Below are positions 1 through 14,789 of a stretch of 30,796 nucleotides of DNA, piece after piece. Origin of the DNA: a virus. Taxonomy: Duplodnaviria > Caudoviricetes. Within the stretch, counting starts at the first letter, position 1. The number at the start of each line of letters is the position of its first letter. The position numbers were made by a program, and so were the translations under genes. The stretch is from positions 1 through 30,796 of the IMG/VR virus record IMGVR_UViG_3300032277_000050. The stretch is one strand, 5' to 3'. Below the pieces are notes generated by a model that ran no database searches, was not told the DNA's origin, and worked only from the letters and a program-made list of their open reading frames with translations.

Positions 1-71
1 AAAACGTACGGCGGAAAATTTACCGGCAATCGTGATGCGCGGGGCGTTGCCCATTATATCCGGTAAAAAGC

Positions 72-106
72 CCGGCAACCGGCAACCGGCAACCGGCAAC
101 CGGCAA
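72..106. repeat. Tandem heptamer repeat (CCGGCAA)x5
   Basis: Five exact copies read directly; one isolated copy also at 23-29. Confidence 0.95.
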
Positions 107-108
107 GC

Positions 109-134
109 GCGGGCAGCGGGCAGCGGGCAGCGGG
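109..134. repeat. Tandem heptamer repeat (GCGGGCA)x3.7
   Basis: Three exact copies plus GCGGG, directly after the CCGGCAA array. Confidence 0.9.
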
Positions 135-300
135 GCGCGATACGCGGGGCGCGGGCTTAAAAACTAGGATTCCGATATCGAGTCAAAAAACCGTGAAAAA
201 TCAGACGTTTACCAAAAATCGCGCAGCGCGGCCACGGGCTCTGCTGGCGCAGGCAAGGGCCATGTTTCTGACAAATAGTTATATAAAAAACGATATGGAT

Positions 301-316
301 TGTTTCACGTGAAACA
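301..316. promoter_or_regulatory. parS: parS-type 16-bp palindrome TGTTTCACGTGAAACA
   Basis: Perfect inverted repeat matching the bacterial chromosomal ParB-binding consensus TGTTNCACGTGAAACA; intergenic. Confidence 0.85.
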
Positions 317-378
317 TTGCCTATTTTTTAGGCACCTCCTGCCCAAATACTGAGCTTAGATTGCCTATTTTTTAGGCA
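316..378. repeat. 19-bp direct repeat ATTGCCTATTTTTTAGGCA x2, each containing the palindrome TGCCTA-N5-TAGGCA (operator-like)
   Basis: Exact copies at 316-334 and 360-378; degenerate inverted copy at 399-415 (13/17). Confidence 0.85.
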
Positions 379-451
379 AAAACGGAAAACTTGTTAACTG
401 AGCAAAAAACAGGCATAAATATTTTATAAATTTTTTGTTCAGGGGCCCCCT

Positions 452-1897
452 ATGGATGTTTCCGATCAGGAGTTAAAGCTTCGCCTGCGACTCGCGCAAA
501 TCGAGAAGAATGAAGCTTGCCAAGAGGACTTCCTAACTTTTGTAAAATCTATGTGGCCCGAGTTTATTGCTGGTCGTCACCACAAGATTATTGCAGAAAA
601 GCTGGAAAGAGTTTCAAAAGGCGAATTAAAGCGCTTGATTATCAACATGGCCCCGCGCCATACGAAGTCAGAGTTCGCATCCTTCTTGTTTCCTGCGTGG
701 ATGATGGGCAAGAACCCACGGATGAAGATCATTCAGGCAACGCACACCACGGAGCTTGCCGTTAACTTTGGCCGTAAAACCAAAAACCTTTTGGACGACG
801 ACCGCTATAAAGAGGTATTTCCTGATGTTAAACTGGCTGCGGATAGTAAGGCGTCTGGACGTTGGGATACCTCTAGCGGAGGCATGTACTATGCTGTTGG
901 CGTTGGCAGTAATCTTGCTGGCCGTGGTGGGGATCTTGTAATCATTGACGATCCGCACTCGGAGCAGACGGCGATGTCCGCCAACGGCTTTGACGATGCT
1001 TGGGACTGGTACACAGGGGGCCCCCGGCAGAGGCTCCAGCCGGGTGGGTCGATTGTTTTGGTCCAGACCCGGTGGTCCGAAAAGGATATGACGGGCCAGC
1101 TTTTAAGAGCGATGGCTAAAGACCCCCTAGCGGATCAGTGGGAAGTTGTAGAGTTACCGGCTATTTTTGATGACGGGACCCCGTGTTGGCCGGAGTTCTG
1201 GTCTCTTGAAGATTTGACCGCGGTAAAGGCGTCCATTCCCCCGAGCAAGTGGAACGCGCAGTATCAGCAGAACCCAACGGGTGAAGAGAATGCGATTATT
1301 CCGCGTGAGTGGTGGAAAAAGTGGGAAAAGGACAGCATACCAAACCTTGAATACGTCATTCAGAGCTATGACACGGCGTTTAGTAAGCGGGAGACGGCGG
1401 ACTACAGCGCGATAACAACGTGGGGCGTATTTCGTCCGGAGGAGGCTGGGGGTCCCCCGGGAATAATATTATTAGATAGTAAAAAGGACCGGTGGGACTT
1501 TCCGGAGCTCAAGAAGGAGGCTTTGGAGCAGTATCATTATTGGGAACCGGATACTGTAATTGTAGAAGCCAAGGCGTCTGGTCTACCTTTGACGCAGGAA
1601 TTAAGAAACATGGGCATACCCGTTGTTAACTTTACGCCGAGCAAGGGAAATGATAAACTAACGAGAGTTCACTCTGTGTCGCCTCTTTTTGAGTCCGGTA
1701 TGGTTTGGGCCCCCGACACCGTCTTTGCTGATGAGATGATAGAGGAGGTGGCGGCATTTCCAAACGGGGAGCACGATGACTTGGTTGACAGCATGACACA
1801 GGCATTAATGCGCTACCGGCAAGGTAATTTTGTCCAGTTGCCCAGCGACGATTGGGATGACGAGGACGCACAGGTTCAGATAAGGGCATATTATTAA
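452..1897 (+). CDS. terL: Terminase large subunit
   Basis: Walker A-like MAPRHTKS, Walker B LVIIDD, motif VQTRW, RNase H-like nuclease with SYDTA and HDDLVDS. Confidence 0.96.
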   Translation: MDVSDQELKLRLRLAQIEKNEACQEDFLTFVKSMWPEFIAGRHHKIIAEKLERVSKGELKRLIINMAPRHTKSEFASFLFPAWMMGKNPRMKIIQATHTTELAVNFGRKTKNLLDDDRYKEVFPDVKLAADSKASGRWDTSSGGMYYAVGVGSNLAGRGGDLVIIDDPHSEQTAMSANGFDDAWDWYTGGPRQRLQPGGSIVLVQTRWSEKDMTGQLLRAMAKDPLADQWEVVELPAIFDDGTPCWPEFWSLEDLTAVKASIPPSKWNAQYQQNPTGEENAIIPREWWKKWEKDSIPNLEYVIQSYDTAFSKRETADYSAITTWGVFRPEEAGGPPGIILLDSKKDRWDFPELKKEALEQYHYWEPDTVIVEAKASGLPLTQELRNMGIPVVNFTPSKGNDKLTRVHSVSPLFESGMVWAPDTVFADEMIEEVAAFPNGEHDDLVDSMTQALMRYRQGNFVQLPSDDWDDEDAQVQIRAYY

Positions 1898-3150
1898 TGG
1901 GCGATTCGATAGTAGATTTGGGGGCCGCGGCGGCTGATTATGTAGGCGACGCTCTTTCTGGTGCATATGATTATTTAACAGGGACCTCTGAAGCTTCGGC
2001 CAGTGGTGGTTACTACAAATCTCTTGGACCGGGCGCTCGGCAGTATTATTCGGGTCCCGGAGAAGATAAAAGCTCTTCTATTATGGATTACATTGGTTTT
2101 GAGGATGGCGGCGCAGTAGATCTTGGCGCAGGGTCCCCCGAAGAAATGGAAAAATTTCTAGAGTTTTTGCGTAAAAACCGTCCTGTGTACAAGGAGGGTG
2201 ATGAGCGCCCGTACACCTATTACAGCGATATGCTGATGGTTCCCGAAGAGAAAAGAAACACGCCAGAGCAGGAGTACGAGACTTTGCCTCGTGCTGATCT
2301 GTATGAGGGCTTTGCGGAACCTTCTTATGGTATCACGTTAGAGGACATTGAAAAGGGAACTGCCCGCTTGTCTGACATACAGGACGAGGCGGTGATGGGG
2401 AATCCTTATGCTGGCACGTCTGGTAATTTTGTACCACAGCAGTACGAGATTGTTGACGGCAGTGTGATCGCCAATCCTGTTGGTTTTGGCGGTGGCGGCG
2501 TTGTATCGTTAGGCGCGGGTGATCCGGGGTATATAGACATGGGTGACATGTCTATGAACGAAGGGTTTGGCTTGTCCCGCGACGATCCGGCATACATGCA
2601 GGAAAGCGGTTTTTCTGGACCGGCATACGCGGAAGACCAAACGCGGCCCGCGGATCTTTTAGGTCCTTTTTTTGAGGAGTACAATCCGGTAGACGGTGAG
2701 TATAAGCGCCTTGAACGCTATGACATGTATCAGGATTTTCCGGAGGGCCGCAGAGGGTCTGACTTTGGTCGCTCGGCCCCGGAGATTGCAATGCAAGACG
2801 GTGGCAGTCCGGCGGTAGAGGGCATTATGTCCGTGGACCTTAGTAAGGGGGCGGACACAACGGGCCCTGACACAATGCAGCCTATTCCGCAATATCCGGG
2901 CATAGAGGGTTTTGACATATATAAGGATTTAGCTCCGGAGCAATTTAAGCGTCGCCCTATAGACAAGCAGATGTTTGATAAGAAGCGCGGCTTTCAGTTT
3001 GGTCAGATGGTTGAGTTGCGTAACGAGGCCGTTGGCGGCAAGTTGTTGAAGCAGGCTGGTATTATGATGCCTGTGGATCAGGTGAAGCAGACGGTTGATC
3101 CGAAGGTCATGGATCAGATGTCACGGATCTTGGGGCGGCAAGTTGTCTGA
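1897..3150 (+). CDS. Hypothetical acidic protein with repeated xxGG-x-V-[DS]-LGAG modules; possible virion-internal protein
   Basis: 417-aa ORF, TAATG-coupled to terL; internal repeats FEDGGAVDLGAG and FGGGGVVSLGAG. Confidence 0.75.
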   Translation: MGDSIVDLGAAAADYVGDALSGAYDYLTGTSEASASGGYYKSLGPGARQYYSGPGEDKSSSIMDYIGFEDGGAVDLGAGSPEEMEKFLEFLRKNRPVYKEGDERPYTYYSDMLMVPEEKRNTPEQEYETLPRADLYEGFAEPSYGITLEDIEKGTARLSDIQDEAVMGNPYAGTSGNFVPQQYEIVDGSVIANPVGFGGGGVVSLGAGDPGYIDMGDMSMNEGFGLSRDDPAYMQESGFSGPAYAEDQTRPADLLGPFFEEYNPVDGEYKRLERYDMYQDFPEGRRGSDFGRSAPEIAMQDGGSPAVEGIMSVDLSKGADTTGPDTMQPIPQYPGIEGFDIYKDLAPEQFKRRPIDKQMFDKKRGFQFGQMVELRNEAVGGKLLKQAGIMMPVDQVKQTVDPKVMDQMSRILGRQVV

Positions 3151-4876: not shown

Positions 4877-7318
4877 ATGGCACGTAAACCAATTGGCGGT
4901 TTGATGGACAAGAATGTTCCTTCGCAGCTTGATCCGGAGGATTTAGCGGCGGAAGTAGAGCTTGAGGTTCCGGGCAGCATGGACAACGTCGTGTCTTTTG
5001 AGGGCATGGCTGAAGGCATGGACATTGAGATTTCTCCGGAGGAGGACGGTGGTGTAACCGTTGATTTTGATCCGGAAGATCAGCGCGGCATGAACGACGA
5101 TTTTTATACAAACTTAGCGGAAGAGATGCCGGACCGTGAGCTTGACCGCATTGCCGGTGAGTTATTGGGTGAGTTTGACGCTAACAAGGCAGGAAGGCAG
5201 GATTGGGAAGATGCTTATGCAAACGGTCTTGAACTGCTTGGGTTCAACTACGAGGAGAGGACCCAGCCATTTAGAGGGGCTTCTGGGGTTACGCACCCGT
5301 TGCTTGCCGAGGCGGCTACGCAGTTTCAGGCGCAGGCGTTCAATGAGTTGTTGCCAGCCAGCGGCCCCGTGCGAACTGCTATTATGGGAAGCGAAACAAG
5401 AGAAAAGCAGCAGCAGTCGCAACGCGTAAGACATTTTATGAATTATTACGTCACTAACGTGATGGAAGATTACACGCCGGACATGGATCAGATGCTGTTC
5501 TATTTACCGCTGGCGGGTAGTACCTTTAAGAAGGTTTATTACGACGAGACCTTGGGCCGTGCGGTAAGTAAGTTTATACCGGCGCAAAACTTGGTTGTAC
5601 CGTATGAGACTTCTGATTTGGACACATGTCCAAACATAACCCAGTCTATTCGGATGTCTTTAAACGATTTGCGGAAAAAGCAGGTCGCGGGCTTTTATTT
5701 GGATGTTCCGGTCATTCCGGCGCAGGCTGAGATGGACTCTGTCTCAGACGAGCTAGACCGGATAGACGGTACGTCATCTACGCAGATTGATTACGACTGC
5801 ACCATTTTGGAGTGTCATGTTGATCTGGATTTGGAAGGGTATGAGGAGCTTGACGAGGACGGCGAACCTACAGGTATTAAAATACCATATGTTGTCACAA
5901 TCAGTCAGGATAACGGGCAAGTCTTGTCTATTCGCCGGAATTACCGCGAGGATGACGAGTTAAAGCGCAAAATCCAGTATTTTGTGCATTATAAGTTCCT
6001 TCCGGGCTTTGGTTTCTATGGTTTAGGCCTCATTCATACTATTGGCGGTTTGTCACGAACCGCCACGGCGGCACTGCGACAGTTAATTGATGCTGGTACG
6101 TTGTCCAATCTCCCAGCGGGTTTCAAGGCCCGTGGGCTACGTATCCGGGATGATGATGATCCGTTGCAGCCCGGTGAGTTCCGTGACGTGGACGCACCCG
6201 GAGGGGCTATTCGTGACAGCCTGATGCCGTTGCCATTTAAGGGTCCTGACCAGACGTTGTTTAATTTGTTAGGTTTTGTGGTTCAGGCGGGTCAGCGGTT
6301 TGCCACGATTACGGACATGAAGGTCGGGGACGGTAACCAGCAGGCGGCAGTAGGTACAACTATTGCGATGCTGGAGCAGGGCTCTCGGGTAATGAGCGCT
6401 GTGCATAAACGTATGCACTATGCCATGAAGCAAGAGTTCAGGATTTTGGCTCGGGTAATGAGCGAGAGCTTGCCGCAGGAGTATCCGTATTCTGTAGAGG
6501 GTGCGGACGCCACGGTAATGCGGTCTGATTTTGATGACCGCGTAGATATCATACCGGTATCTGACCCGAATGTATTTAGTCAGGCGCAGCGCATTGCTTT
6601 GGCTCAGACTAAGTTGCAGTTGGCGGGGGCGGCCCCTGAGTTGCACAACATGTACGAGGTGTATCGGGACATGTACGACGCACTTGGTGTGCGGGACGTG
6701 GACCGTATTATGAAGCGCATTCCTGATGATGAGCCGACTCCGAAGGATCCGGCGCAGGAGAACATCGACGTAATGGACATGGTGCCGTTACACGCTTTTG
6801 AGGGTCAGGAGCACGAGGCGCACATTATGGCGCACATGGTCTTTGGCTCTACTCCTATGGTGGGAAGTATGCCGACTATGGCTATGGCCTTGCAGAAGCA
6901 CATTATGGAGCACGTAAAGATTGCGGCGCGTGAGCGGGCAGCGGTGCAGTTTATCCAGAGCAGGCAGGCCGCGGGCGGCGAGGCGGCCACTGAGGAAGAG
7001 ATGTTGCAGATTGAAGGCTTAACGGCACAGTTTGTTGCGGAAGGTATGCAGATGGTCAAGCAGATGTCTGGTCAGATCTCTGGTGAAGGCCCTGATCCGC
7101 TGGTTCAGCTTAAAGAGCAGGAGCTTCAGATCAAGGCGCAGGCCGAGCAGGCGGATGCACAGAACGACCAAGCCAAGTTGCAGCTTGACGCACAGAACCA
7201 GCAGTTGCGGGCGGATCAGTTCCAGCAGCGGTTGGCGGCGCAAGAGCGGCAGACACAGGCACGTATTCAGTCTGCTATGGAGCGTGAATTACTTAAACTT
7301 GGCAGAGGAGGCCAGTAA
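4877..7318 (+). CDS. Portal protein (P22-like, with C-terminal coiled coil)
   Basis: 813 aa, RBS GAGGAG; motifs HPLLAEAATQFQA, LPLAGSTFKKVY, FYGLGLIHTIGG; Gln-rich C-terminal helix; position after terL. Confidence 0.9.
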   Translation: MARKPIGGLMDKNVPSQLDPEDLAAEVELEVPGSMDNVVSFEGMAEGMDIEISPEEDGGVTVDFDPEDQRGMNDDFYTNLAEEMPDRELDRIAGELLGEFDANKAGRQDWEDAYANGLELLGFNYEERTQPFRGASGVTHPLLAEAATQFQAQAFNELLPASGPVRTAIMGSETREKQQQSQRVRHFMNYYVTNVMEDYTPDMDQMLFYLPLAGSTFKKVYYDETLGRAVSKFIPAQNLVVPYETSDLDTCPNITQSIRMSLNDLRKKQVAGFYLDVPVIPAQAEMDSVSDELDRIDGTSSTQIDYDCTILECHVDLDLEGYEELDEDGEPTGIKIPYVVTISQDNGQVLSIRRNYREDDELKRKIQYFVHYKFLPGFGFYGLGLIHTIGGLSRTATAALRQLIDAGTLSNLPAGFKARGLRIRDDDDPLQPGEFRDVDAPGGAIRDSLMPLPFKGPDQTLFNLLGFVVQAGQRFATITDMKVGDGNQQAAVGTTIAMLEQGSRVMSAVHKRMHYAMKQEFRILARVMSESLPQEYPYSVEGADATVMRSDFDDRVDIIPVSDPNVFSQAQRIALAQTKLQLAGAAPELHNMYEVYRDMYDALGVRDVDRIMKRIPDDEPTPKDPAQENIDVMDMVPLHAFEGQEHEAHIMAHMVFGSTPMVGSMPTMAMALQKHIMEHVKIAARERAAVQFIQSRQAAGGEAATEEEMLQIEGLTAQFVAEGMQMVKQMSGQISGEGPDPLVQLKEQELQIKAQAEQADAQNDQAKLQLDAQNQQLRADQFQQRLAAQERQTQARIQSAMERELLKLGRGGQ

Positions 7319-12724: not shown

Positions 12725-13639
12725 ATGGCTATTTCTCGCGCACAACTAGCGAAAGAGCTTGAGCCCGGCCTGAATGCCTTGTTCGGACTTGAGTACGACC
12801 GCTACGAAAATGAACACGCTGAAATCTTCGACGAAGAGTCATCAGATCGTGCATTTGAAGAAGAGGTGATGCTCGGTGGGTTCTCAACAGCACCAACCAA
12901 AGGTGAAGGCGCAGCCATCACTTTTGACGATGCTCAAGAGACCTACACAGCACGGTACACACATGAGACAATCGCTCTGGCATTCTCAATCACTGAGGAA
13001 GCTATCGAGGACAACTTGTACGACCGTCTGGCATCACGCTACACCAAAGCTCTGGCCCGTTCAATGGCTCAGACAAAGCAGATCAAAGCTGCCGCTATTC
13101 TGAACAATGCGTTCAGCGCAACCGGCGGTAATGCGATTGGCGATGGTGCAGCACTTTGTTCAAACGCTCACCCATCATTGTCAGGTAACCAGACCAATAT
13201 TCTGGCTACTGCGGCTGACCTCAACGAGACTTCTCTTGAGCAGATGCTGATTGACATTGCGGGGCTGACTGACGAGCGTGGTCTGAAGATTGCTGTTCGT
13301 GGTACAAAGCTGATTATCCCGAAAGAACTGCAATTCATTGCAGAGCGGGTCATCAACTCAAACCTACGTTCAGGTACAGCGGACAACGACACCAACGCAA
13401 TGAAGAACATGGGTATGTTGCCAGAAGGGGCGGTGGTTAACCACTTCCTGACTGACACAGACGCATTCTTCATCAAGACAGATGCTCCAAACGGTTTCAA
13501 ATACTTTAACCGTTCGCCAATCAAGACAGCTATGGAAGGTGATTTTGACACCGGAAATATGCGGTTTAAGGCACGTGAGCGTTACAGCTTCGGTGTTTCT
13601 GACTGGCGTTCTGTGTTCGGTACTCCGGGCGCAGCGTAA
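12725..13639 (+). CDS. Major capsid protein (HK97 fold, Mu gpT-like family)
   Basis: MAISRAQLAKELEPGLNALFG start; FSITEEAIEDNLY; FKARERYSFGVSDWR end; followed by a terminator. Confidence 0.92.
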   Translation: MAISRAQLAKELEPGLNALFGLEYDRYENEHAEIFDEESSDRAFEEEVMLGGFSTAPTKGEGAAITFDDAQETYTARYTHETIALAFSITEEAIEDNLYDRLASRYTKALARSMAQTKQIKAAAILNNAFSATGGNAIGDGAALCSNAHPSLSGNQTNILATAADLNETSLEQMLIDIAGLTDERGLKIAVRGTKLIIPKELQFIAERVINSNLRSGTADNDTNAMKNMGMLPEGAVVNHFLTDTDAFFIKTDAPNGFKYFNRSPIKTAMEGDFDTGNMRFKARERYSFGVSDWRSVFGTPGAA

Positions 13640-13755: not shown

Positions 13756-14217
13756 ATGGCTACAACTACTTTCTCTGGACCTATTAAGGCCGGAACTATC
13801 AAAAACACCACGGGCACATCCCTTGGGACTAACATTGCAAATGTTGGCCAAGTTGTTATGGCTCAGACTTTTTCAGCAGACCTTTCTGGCGGTGCACTTG
13901 CAGCGTCTGTAACAGACGTTGTTATCCCTGCAAATTCCCAGATTATTGACTGTGTAATTGACGTTATTACTGCGGCTAACGCTACCACTAACCTTAGTGT
14001 TGGGGATACAGTAGGCGGTGCCTCTACAATTCTGAACACTTTTGCAAGTGGAACAACCGCAGGCCGTAAGTATCCAACAACCGAAGCCGGTGGTGCATTG
14101 GCGTGGCAGGACACTGGAACAGCCGACATTCGTTTGACTGTAACTGCTTCTGCTGCAACAACCGCAGGTTTGGTTCGTTTTACAATTCTGTATCAGCAAA
14201 ACAACAACCTAGCTTAA
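13756..14217 (+). CDS. Putative virion structural protein
   Basis: RBS AGGAG; 153 aa, Thr/Ala/Gly beta-rich, begins MATTTFSGPIKAG. Confidence 0.8.
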   Translation: MATTTFSGPIKAGTIKNTTGTSLGTNIANVGQVVMAQTFSADLSGGALAASVTDVVIPANSQIIDCVIDVITAANATTNLSVGDTVGGASTILNTFASGTTAGRKYPTTEAGGALAWQDTGTADIRLTVTASAATTAGLVRFTILYQQNNNLA

Positions 14218-14229
14218 TAGGGGGCTGTA

Positions 14230-14502
14230 ATGGCAGGTTCTGACGTAAAAGCGAAGCGTGTGACGGCAACCGGGTCAGCCGGTGTCGGTCCCGCTCGTAT
14301 CCGTCAGATACAAGTTTTGACCACAACAGGCACTCCGCGCTTAACCATTACTGACGGTAATGGCGGCGCGACAGTTCTGGACTTGGACTTTCTTGCATCT
14401 GACTCGCACTCAGTAAACATTCCCGCAGAAGGCATTCGGGTATCAGATATTTATGTATCTGCTTTTACCGCTTGTACCGCTGTGACCGTGTTTTATAATT
14501 AA
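14230..14502 (+). CDS. Small beta-rich virion protein, paralog A
   Basis: 90 aa; MAGSDVKA...TATG...GPAR; similar to the next gene. Confidence 0.8.
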   Translation: MAGSDVKAKRVTATGSAGVGPARIRQIQVLTTTGTPRLTITDGNGGATVLDLDFLASDSHSVNIPAEGIRVSDIYVSAFTACTAVTVFYN

Positions 14503-14513
14503 GGAACACTTCT

Positions 14514-14789
14514 ATGGCTGGTTCTGATATCAAAGCAAGCTACATAACTGCTACAGGCACTGTTGCAAGTGGCCCACGGCGGTTAGTTTGTATTCATTAC
14601 CATACTGGGGGGTCTACAGGTAGCGTTGTTCTGAGAGACGGTGGTGCTTCCGGCACTGCCGTCTTTACATTAGATTTTCACTCAAACGCTACAGGCGATC
14701 TCCAAATTGGAGAGGAAGGCGTAAAGTTCAATACTGACATTCATGCCACTTTTACAAATGTTACAAGCATGACGTTTTTCTTTAAGTGA
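14514..14789 (+). CDS. Small beta-rich virion protein, paralog B
   Basis: 91 aa; MAGSDIKA...TATG...GPRR; RBS AAGGA. Confidence 0.8.
   Translation: MAGSDIKASYITATGTVASGPRRLVCIHYHTGGSTGSVVLRDGGASGTAVFTLDFHSNATGDLQIGEEGVKFNTDIHATFTNVTSMTFFFK

Follow-up and report, generated by a model that had tools for sequence, protein, structure and literature searches.

The plasmid prophages P1 and N15 encode their own ParA and ParB and have site sequences of their own. Pseudolysogeny is often invoked for marine phages. According to PMC9437464, the genes that it requires have not been defined in any system. The same paper describes CtrA boxes in the promoters of Alphaproteobacteria phages, for which a delay of lysis, 'lytic deferment', was proposed; the term parS is absent from the main text of that paper. 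In phage phi29 there are five parS sites, there is evidence that host Spo0J segregates the phage DNA into the prespore, and Spo0A represses phage promoters (PMC2731898, PMC9437464). On the bacterial side, one Caulobacter parS binds ParB at 30 nM, with spreading up to ~2 kb (PMC5815017), and a single parS together with its par operon stabilises plasmids (PMC7022226).

The HTVC023P group of pelagiphages is described as the most abundant known marine viral group, in which no integrase was found (10.1101/2019.12.14.876532). HTVC027P has a latent period of ~18 h and is described as obligately lytic (PMC12753301). Neither parS nor ParB is mentioned in PMC9599517, which deals with HTVC023P-type pelagiphages. 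In the literature searched, which covered title listings and the openings of abstracts, mostly outside subscription journals, no report was found of a host-type parS on lytic phages outside the phi29 family, or of NtrC at phage promoters.

The parS site and its genomic setting

The window, that is, the whole stretch of 30,796 nt that was analyzed, is a 30.8-kb fragment, as against ~57 kb in complete relatives, and has a GC content of 49%. At 301-316 it contains TGTTTCACGTGAAACA, with 0 mismatches to the parS consensus. This is the sole parS match at ≤3 mismatches in the whole window and also its sole perfect 16-bp palindrome; ~8e-6 exact matches would be expected by chance. PMC7383237 works with the same 16-mer as its parS consensus, and PMC7022226 lists it as the Hyphomonas parS, so the earlier note was right to call it the consensus of chromosomal ParB. 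Its distance of about 135 bp to terL also holds: 135 nt lie between the end of parS and the ATG at 452, and the gene is identified as terL by phrog_38. The site is not an assembly artefact, because contigs of other runs cross it; one covers 246-1548, and another covers 252-434 with 0 differences to the window.

Table 1. Features of the window, with the basis on which each was assigned
Feature	Position	Strand	Basis
GC-rich non-coding tract, short tandem repeats, conserved motif near 163-184; may be an origin or packaging region	1..256	none	sequence comparison
Conserved element upstream of parS, present also in relatives without parS	257..297	+	alignment of relatives
Host-type parS (a 16-bp palindrome without mismatch); probable site of host ParB loading	301..316	none	consensus match and conservation
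NtrC-type box 1 (TGC-N11-GCA around an AT-rich core), separated from parS by 1 nt	318..334	none	motif match
NtrC-type box 2, same sequence as box 1; in most relatives a single box is found at this place	362..378	none	motif match
Inferred sigma70-type late promoter, TTGTTA, 17 nt, CATAAA	391..419	+	conserved spacing
Degenerate third NtrC-type box across promoter spacer, 3 mismatches	399..415	none	alignment
Near-invariant G/C motif directly before terL start, likely ribosome-binding site	441..450	+	conservation
terL, first gene of co-oriented packaging and virion block	452..1897	+	phrog_38, E 4e-111
Portal	4877-7318	+	same block as terL
Major capsid	12725-13639	+	same block as terL

Gene content and gene order are those of HTVC023P-type phages. 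TerL is 54-62% and DNA polymerase 49-51% identical to those of HTVC023P-type pelagiphages, the window TerL being 62% identical to that of Pelagibacter phage HTVC027P and 54% to that of HTVC023P. A TerL tree was calculated from 115 representatives of 197 loci with ≥1200 nt upstream and a TerL of ≥400 aa, plus the window; it is a FastTree phylogeny, with supports weaker than those of a full likelihood search. The window falls in a separate, higher-GC clade of 46 of the 115 representatives, and no cultured member of this clade is among the matches. This stretch occurs in runs from metagenomes of marine, freshwater, mat, sediment, and mollusc origin.

A GC-rich non-coding tract of ~500 nt, with lineage-specific short tandem repeats, follows a terminator-like hairpin (window 1-256; L158, L166, L181, L189, L206, L216, L359). 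Many contigs end within this tract, which is a candidate origin or packaging region, and the part upstream of parS has no Rfam match for a structured RNA. Locus L227 encodes at 14196-14561 (- strand) a 122-aa protein with a sigma70 region-4-like HTH and an RNA polymerase alpha-CTD-like domain, a candidate transcription regulator.

As the earlier note had stated, the window lacks parA and parB: no ParA or ParB family was found among 40 ORFs (PHROGs) or 39 ORFs (Pfam). A phage-encoded ParB, which according to the note would change its reading to ordinary plasmid-prophage partitioning, was not found in near-complete relatives either. ParB_N is present in 0 of 10 records that are ≥90% complete, and ParA, integrase, and HTH_ParB are each present in 0 of 5 near-complete relatives. 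Among 50 records chosen for length, one has a ParB_N match; the match is weak and falls within a 1056-aa frame of a record that has no parS. A long protein with a weak ParB_N-like domain is encoded at 1-2964 (- strand) of L473, a relative without parS. In the complete relative G002, the genes that Pfam searches of 65 ORFs identified are, apart from those of HTH proteins, all concerned with replication, packaging, or the virion. Near-complete relatives carry a host-type parS with neither an integrase nor par genes, which is the arrangement of the phi29 type; the phage ParA plus ParB of a plasmid prophage with its own par system was not found in them, nor was parS near parAB on the same replicon.

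Conservation and placement of parS in relatives

The earlier note had proposed that relatives be scanned for parS at the same position. Exact parS is present in 60 of the 80 closest terL loci, and 63 have it at ≤1 mismatch; in 51 of these 63 it lies within 200 nt of terL and in 12 farther off. The lack of conservation that would have spoken against the note's reading is thus not what is seen. Eleven of the 17 remaining loci have <1200 nt upstream, and six lack parS despite having more. Across all 310 loci (3.1 Mb, window counted, many near-identical) the exact site occurs in 95, as compared with 0 exact matches and 1 locus at one mismatch for 60 shuffled palindromes over the same 3.1 Mb. Where TerL identity is ≥84%, parS lies within 200 nt in 72 of 119 loci with enough flank; at 50-65% identity the exact site is found in 0 of 148 loci, and 5 have it at ≤1 mismatch. 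Column identity across parS is 99.75%, versus 70% and 82% in the flanks, in rows selected for having parS. The site is single (≤1 mismatch) in 33 of 34 positive records, one subclade adding a second, variant copy, and five near-complete relatives have exactly one perfect parS each.

Placement is less uniform. Among 52 distinct regions anchored on flanking motifs, parS precedes the inferred promoter in 43, which is the placement in the window, follows it in 1, and is missing from 8 (one anchor is spurious). In the regions without parS the entire cassette is gone and the site has not decayed; two such loci have parS elsewhere. At least four placements other than that of the window occur within its clade or its relatives. 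In some relatives parS, frequently as a pair of copies, is situated after the promoter and ahead of the start codon. In L146, L356, and L364 it is ~1.1 kb away from the promoter, where the upstream region joins terL, and in L206 it stands ~1.2 kb before terS, and in the L189 group the whole cassette precedes terS. The earlier note had tied parS to terL; this is correct for the window, but the subclade with its cassette before terS indicates that the site is not bound to terL as such. On the TerL tree, the presence of parS changes at least 10 times, with 7 of the changes inside the clade of the window.

Two distant relatives have parS inside long virion-block frames, L423 at +4699, +5380, and +6418 from terL and L442 at +4598. 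In L219, L337-L346, and L359, T/A and C/G forms of parS stand in tandem, ~24 nt apart and 70-100 nt before terL; both sites of this subclade are between promoter and start codon. The commonest parS variant in the phage loci is TGTTCCACGTGGAACA (19 times), which dominates the Verrucomicrobia parS sites among the matches listed and fits the Caulobacter parS consensus (PMC7022226). Variation among the phage sites stays within the forms that bacterial parS tolerates, as judged from the bacterial variants among the matches listed. A sequence that is kept exactly while its position varies would be more in keeping with a loading site than with an operator of the classical kind.

The site is dispensable, since it is lacking near terL in 17 of the 46 representatives of the clade, is absent altogether from 2 of 10 near-complete records (≥90%), and was not found at ≤2 mismatches in the 34-37 kb read of HTVC023P, DSL-LC04, and 023Pt_psg01. 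It is present in 33 of 57 high-GC versus 1 of 58 low-GC representatives; a link between GC content and parS was considered and dropped, as independent pairs give no signal. A missing host system does not account for the absence of parS from pelagiphages, because partition genes are annotated in SAR11 (SAR11_0353/0354; supplement of PMC12753301). HTVC027P has a 1-mismatch parS (L220, 15897-15912) in the codons for AFHVKH of an unannotated VRR-NUC-like gene beside terS, and this site was not counted as parS. Rare codons are favoured there (GCG 10/12, GTG 10/12), the His codon breaks the parS core in 7 of 12, and the codons that follow are also nearly fixed. Codons 75-118 of this gene show almost no synonymous change in 12 relatives, which hints at an overlapping element.

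Matches to parS are also found on other phages. It occurs in ~5700 IMG/VR stretches, host DNA included, versus 3 for one control palindrome. A 30-mer centred on parS matches 521 cultured-phage records, among which full sites were verified only for Roseobacter phage DSS3P8 (L504), a cultured phage, and a possible test system, with two exact intergenic sites (2944-2959 and 4988-5003) near the record end, in the 6 kb read. The parS-centred query also matches phages of Listeria, Arthrobacter, Clostridium, and Microbacterium as well as small phages, namely Microviridae and genomes of 6 kb that have a Zot-like gene; in some of these phages it matches at several places.

The parS of these phages is real and under selection. 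Its conservation, its relocation, its bacterial-type variants, and the lack of ParB, ParA, and integrase in near-complete relatives make it very probable, on comparative grounds, that it is a selected loading site for host ParB.

NtrC-type boxes and the probable host

The sequence TGCCTATTTTTTAGGCA starts one base past parS and is repeated 44 nt on (Table 1). The NtrC motif is TGC-N11-GCA with an AT-rich core (PMC10746234). In phage loci, 80 of the 82 strict NtrC-type copies are found upstream of terL at a distance of no more than 1300 nt. When 251-451 was shuffled 2000 times, no strict copy arose. The 1-nt spacing between parS and box is kept in nearly all relatives with both. A third box, with 0-2 mismatches, is found in the promoter spacers of 26 of 51 distinct relatives. 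The promoter itself is a conserved TTGTTA-17-CATATT element in relatives, read as sigma70-type; a consensus promoter scanner made no call at 391-419 of the window. The earlier note had overlooked both the phi29 precedent and the membership of parS in a promoter cassette with NtrC-type boxes.

The motif suggests that NtrC probably binds the boxes. Only one subclade has them, with 2 changes on the tree; among the 29 representatives that bear parS, 14 are without boxes, and independent-pair tests reveal no coupling of parS and box (p 1). A sigma54 promoter was rejected: the -24/-12 pattern is present in only 2 of 127 loci. The activator mode of NtrC is thus not what is found, and the arrangement would fit repression of a sigma70-type promoter instead. 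A CtrA box at the TTAAC element was likewise rejected, as the element is not kept and reads TTGTTC in 7 of 51.

Among bacteria, 45 of 121 genomes from the Maricaulis class have the NtrC-type motif, versus 2 for the control (the tally includes the unpublished genome G046), as do 12 of 121 of the Legionellales class versus 6, and 8 of 121 Verrucomicrobia versus 5. Among 29 bacterial copies examined, 5 precede P-II genes, 1 precedes amtB, 5 precede an ntrB-like kinase or dus, which we take to be the head of ntrBC, 10 precede uvrC, and 8 precede other genes. The core regulon consists of glnBK, amtB, and ntrBC (PMC5343134). The copies before uvrC are in alphaproteobacterial loci (L475, L476, L483, L489, L490, L495, L496, L498, L499, L501; position 1501) and perhaps reflect an unseen small RNA or another regulator.

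Of 301 genomes sampled from the Maricaulis class, 273 have the same parS, mostly twice, versus 6 for the control (the tally includes the unpublished genomes G221 and G046), and most sampled alphaproteobacterial genomes have only ~2 sites. The motif evidence points to an alphaproteobacterial host as likely. Two of the closest bacterial-genome matches are in Verrucomicrobia MAGs; a Verrucomicrobia host is weakened by the near-control frequency of the NtrC-type motif and by parS sites that are nearly all of the C/G form, among the matches listed. Three small bacterial genomes (G460, G105, G126) have 29-36 parS-like matches each; those of G460, among the matches listed, are mostly one central variant spread over many contigs.

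Possible roles of the site and comparison with known systems

The reading preferred here is carriage as in phi29. The host ParB clamp would load onto phage DNA at parS, and the host partition machinery would position the phage genome and carry it while lysis is delayed; NtrC at the adjacent boxes is predicted to hold the late promoter under nitrogen shortage. A more far-reaching form of this reading, with a probability of roughly 0.3, is that a branch of this abundant phage group has a phi29-like starvation switch made from two host proteins, with no phage repressor: NtrC would hold the late operon when nitrogen runs short, and ParB would take the waiting genome through host divisions. Carriage is favoured because there is usually just one site, because it is found where the late genes begin and, in this subclade, directly beside the boxes of a starvation regulator, and because HTVC027P takes ~18 h to lysis. 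That positioning of the phage genome by host ParB during the delay is the selected benefit may be put, by analogy, at a little under even odds. Several observations count against it. In a Caulobacter-like host lengthy carriage would be costly, since a plasmid-borne parS diverts segregation and cuts viability up to ~1000-fold (PMC5815017); HTVC027P is described as obligately lytic (PMC12753301); and the clade representatives without a site near terL show that parS can be dispensed with. Against the predicted part of NtrC stand the restriction of the boxes to one subclade, their lack of coupling to parS, and the 10 of 29 bacterial copies before uvrC.

Lytic jamming of the host is a close rival of carriage and may act as well, though as the explanation of the site it is doubtful. 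Replicated phage copies of parS would out-titrate the few host sites and draw ParB, together with MipZ in the case of Alphaproteobacteria, away from the chromosome, so that segregation and division are blocked and one large cell is kept for the burst. With only ~2 chromosomal sites in most sampled alphaproteobacterial genomes, and with a toxicity of plasmid-borne parS that is proportional to affinity (PMC5815017), such an effect is plausible; some titration is expected if ParB binds at all. No carrier state is needed, which suits lytic relatives, and a flexible genome position is expected. If the site served as a sponge, arrays would be expected, but it is single in 33 of the 34 positive records. 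Jamming also leaves unexplained the position of almost every site at the early/late boundary, though other gaps exist, and the kept 1-nt spacing to the NtrC-type box.

A timer of late genes is unlikely. As long as only one infecting genome is present, ParB spreading along it would keep the late promoter low, and replication would later relieve this by diluting ParB; NtrC beside parS would be a competitor or roadblock. This is consistent with the presence of parS in promoter cassettes that have moved to a place before terS or before an inserted gene (L189 group, L171), with the spreading of Caulobacter ParB up to ~2 kb from one site (PMC5815017), and with the repression of parS-adjacent promoters by Pseudomonas ParB (PMC7022226). 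The effects on promoters at native ParB levels are, however, modest (PMC7022226), and the position of parS relative to the promoter is not fixed, being upstream, downstream, ~1.1 kb on, 6.6 kb away, or in virion genes.

It is improbable that the palindrome is an operator of a phage protein, or that it serves, in the manner of plasmid prophages, a phage ParB that escaped detection. About half of the genome of the window phage is missing, the complete relative G002 encodes HTH proteins, and divergent ParB folds could evade Pfam. On the other side, ParB_N, HTH_ParB, and ParA are absent from near-complete relatives, the lone ParB_N match in 50 records is weak and in a long frame of a record without parS, the variants track bacterial parS forms, and the same site is found on unrelated phages. 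A neutral passenger or chance sequence can hardly be credited: the site is absent from many relatives and near-identical loci make the counts overstate independence, but neutrality is largely refuted by recurrence in non-homologous contexts, with at least 10 changes on the tree, controls at zero, and the column identity far above that of the flanks in rows selected for having parS.

The starvation switch, if true, would provide a molecular basis for pseudolysogeny in nutrient-poor water, and hijacking of the host centromere would be a general strategy of lytic phages. A 16-bp host centromere with adjoining NtrC-type boxes is a small, mutable handle on pseudolysogeny. Use of host ParB may be widespread, given the IMG/VR stretches, some of them host DNA, and the many cultured phages that match.

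The window phage resembles several known systems in part. It shares the consensus and the tolerated variants of parS with the chromosomal ParABS of Caulobacter, Hyphomonas, and B. subtilis, and differs from them in that the site belongs to a phage whose near-complete relatives have no parAB. Like P1 and N15 it has a centromere-like site on phage DNA; here no par genes were found and the site is that of the host. It has probable host regulator sites in a phage promoter as do the CtrA-box phages, for another regulator. Gene set and order are shared with HTVC023P-type pelagiphages, of which the cultured low-GC SAR11 phages have no clear parS. The likeness to phi29 (and Nf) is that of a lytic-looking phage with a host-type parS, probable use of host ParB, and probable host stress-regulator boxes at a phage promoter. 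The five sites and the entrapment in spores of phi29 are replaced by usually one site (33/34 records) at the late-operon boundary of a marine phage with ~57-kb relatives and a likely non-sporulating host, and the second motif is NtrC-type. The principle is known from phi29; new here are the abundant marine lineage and the added NtrC-type element.
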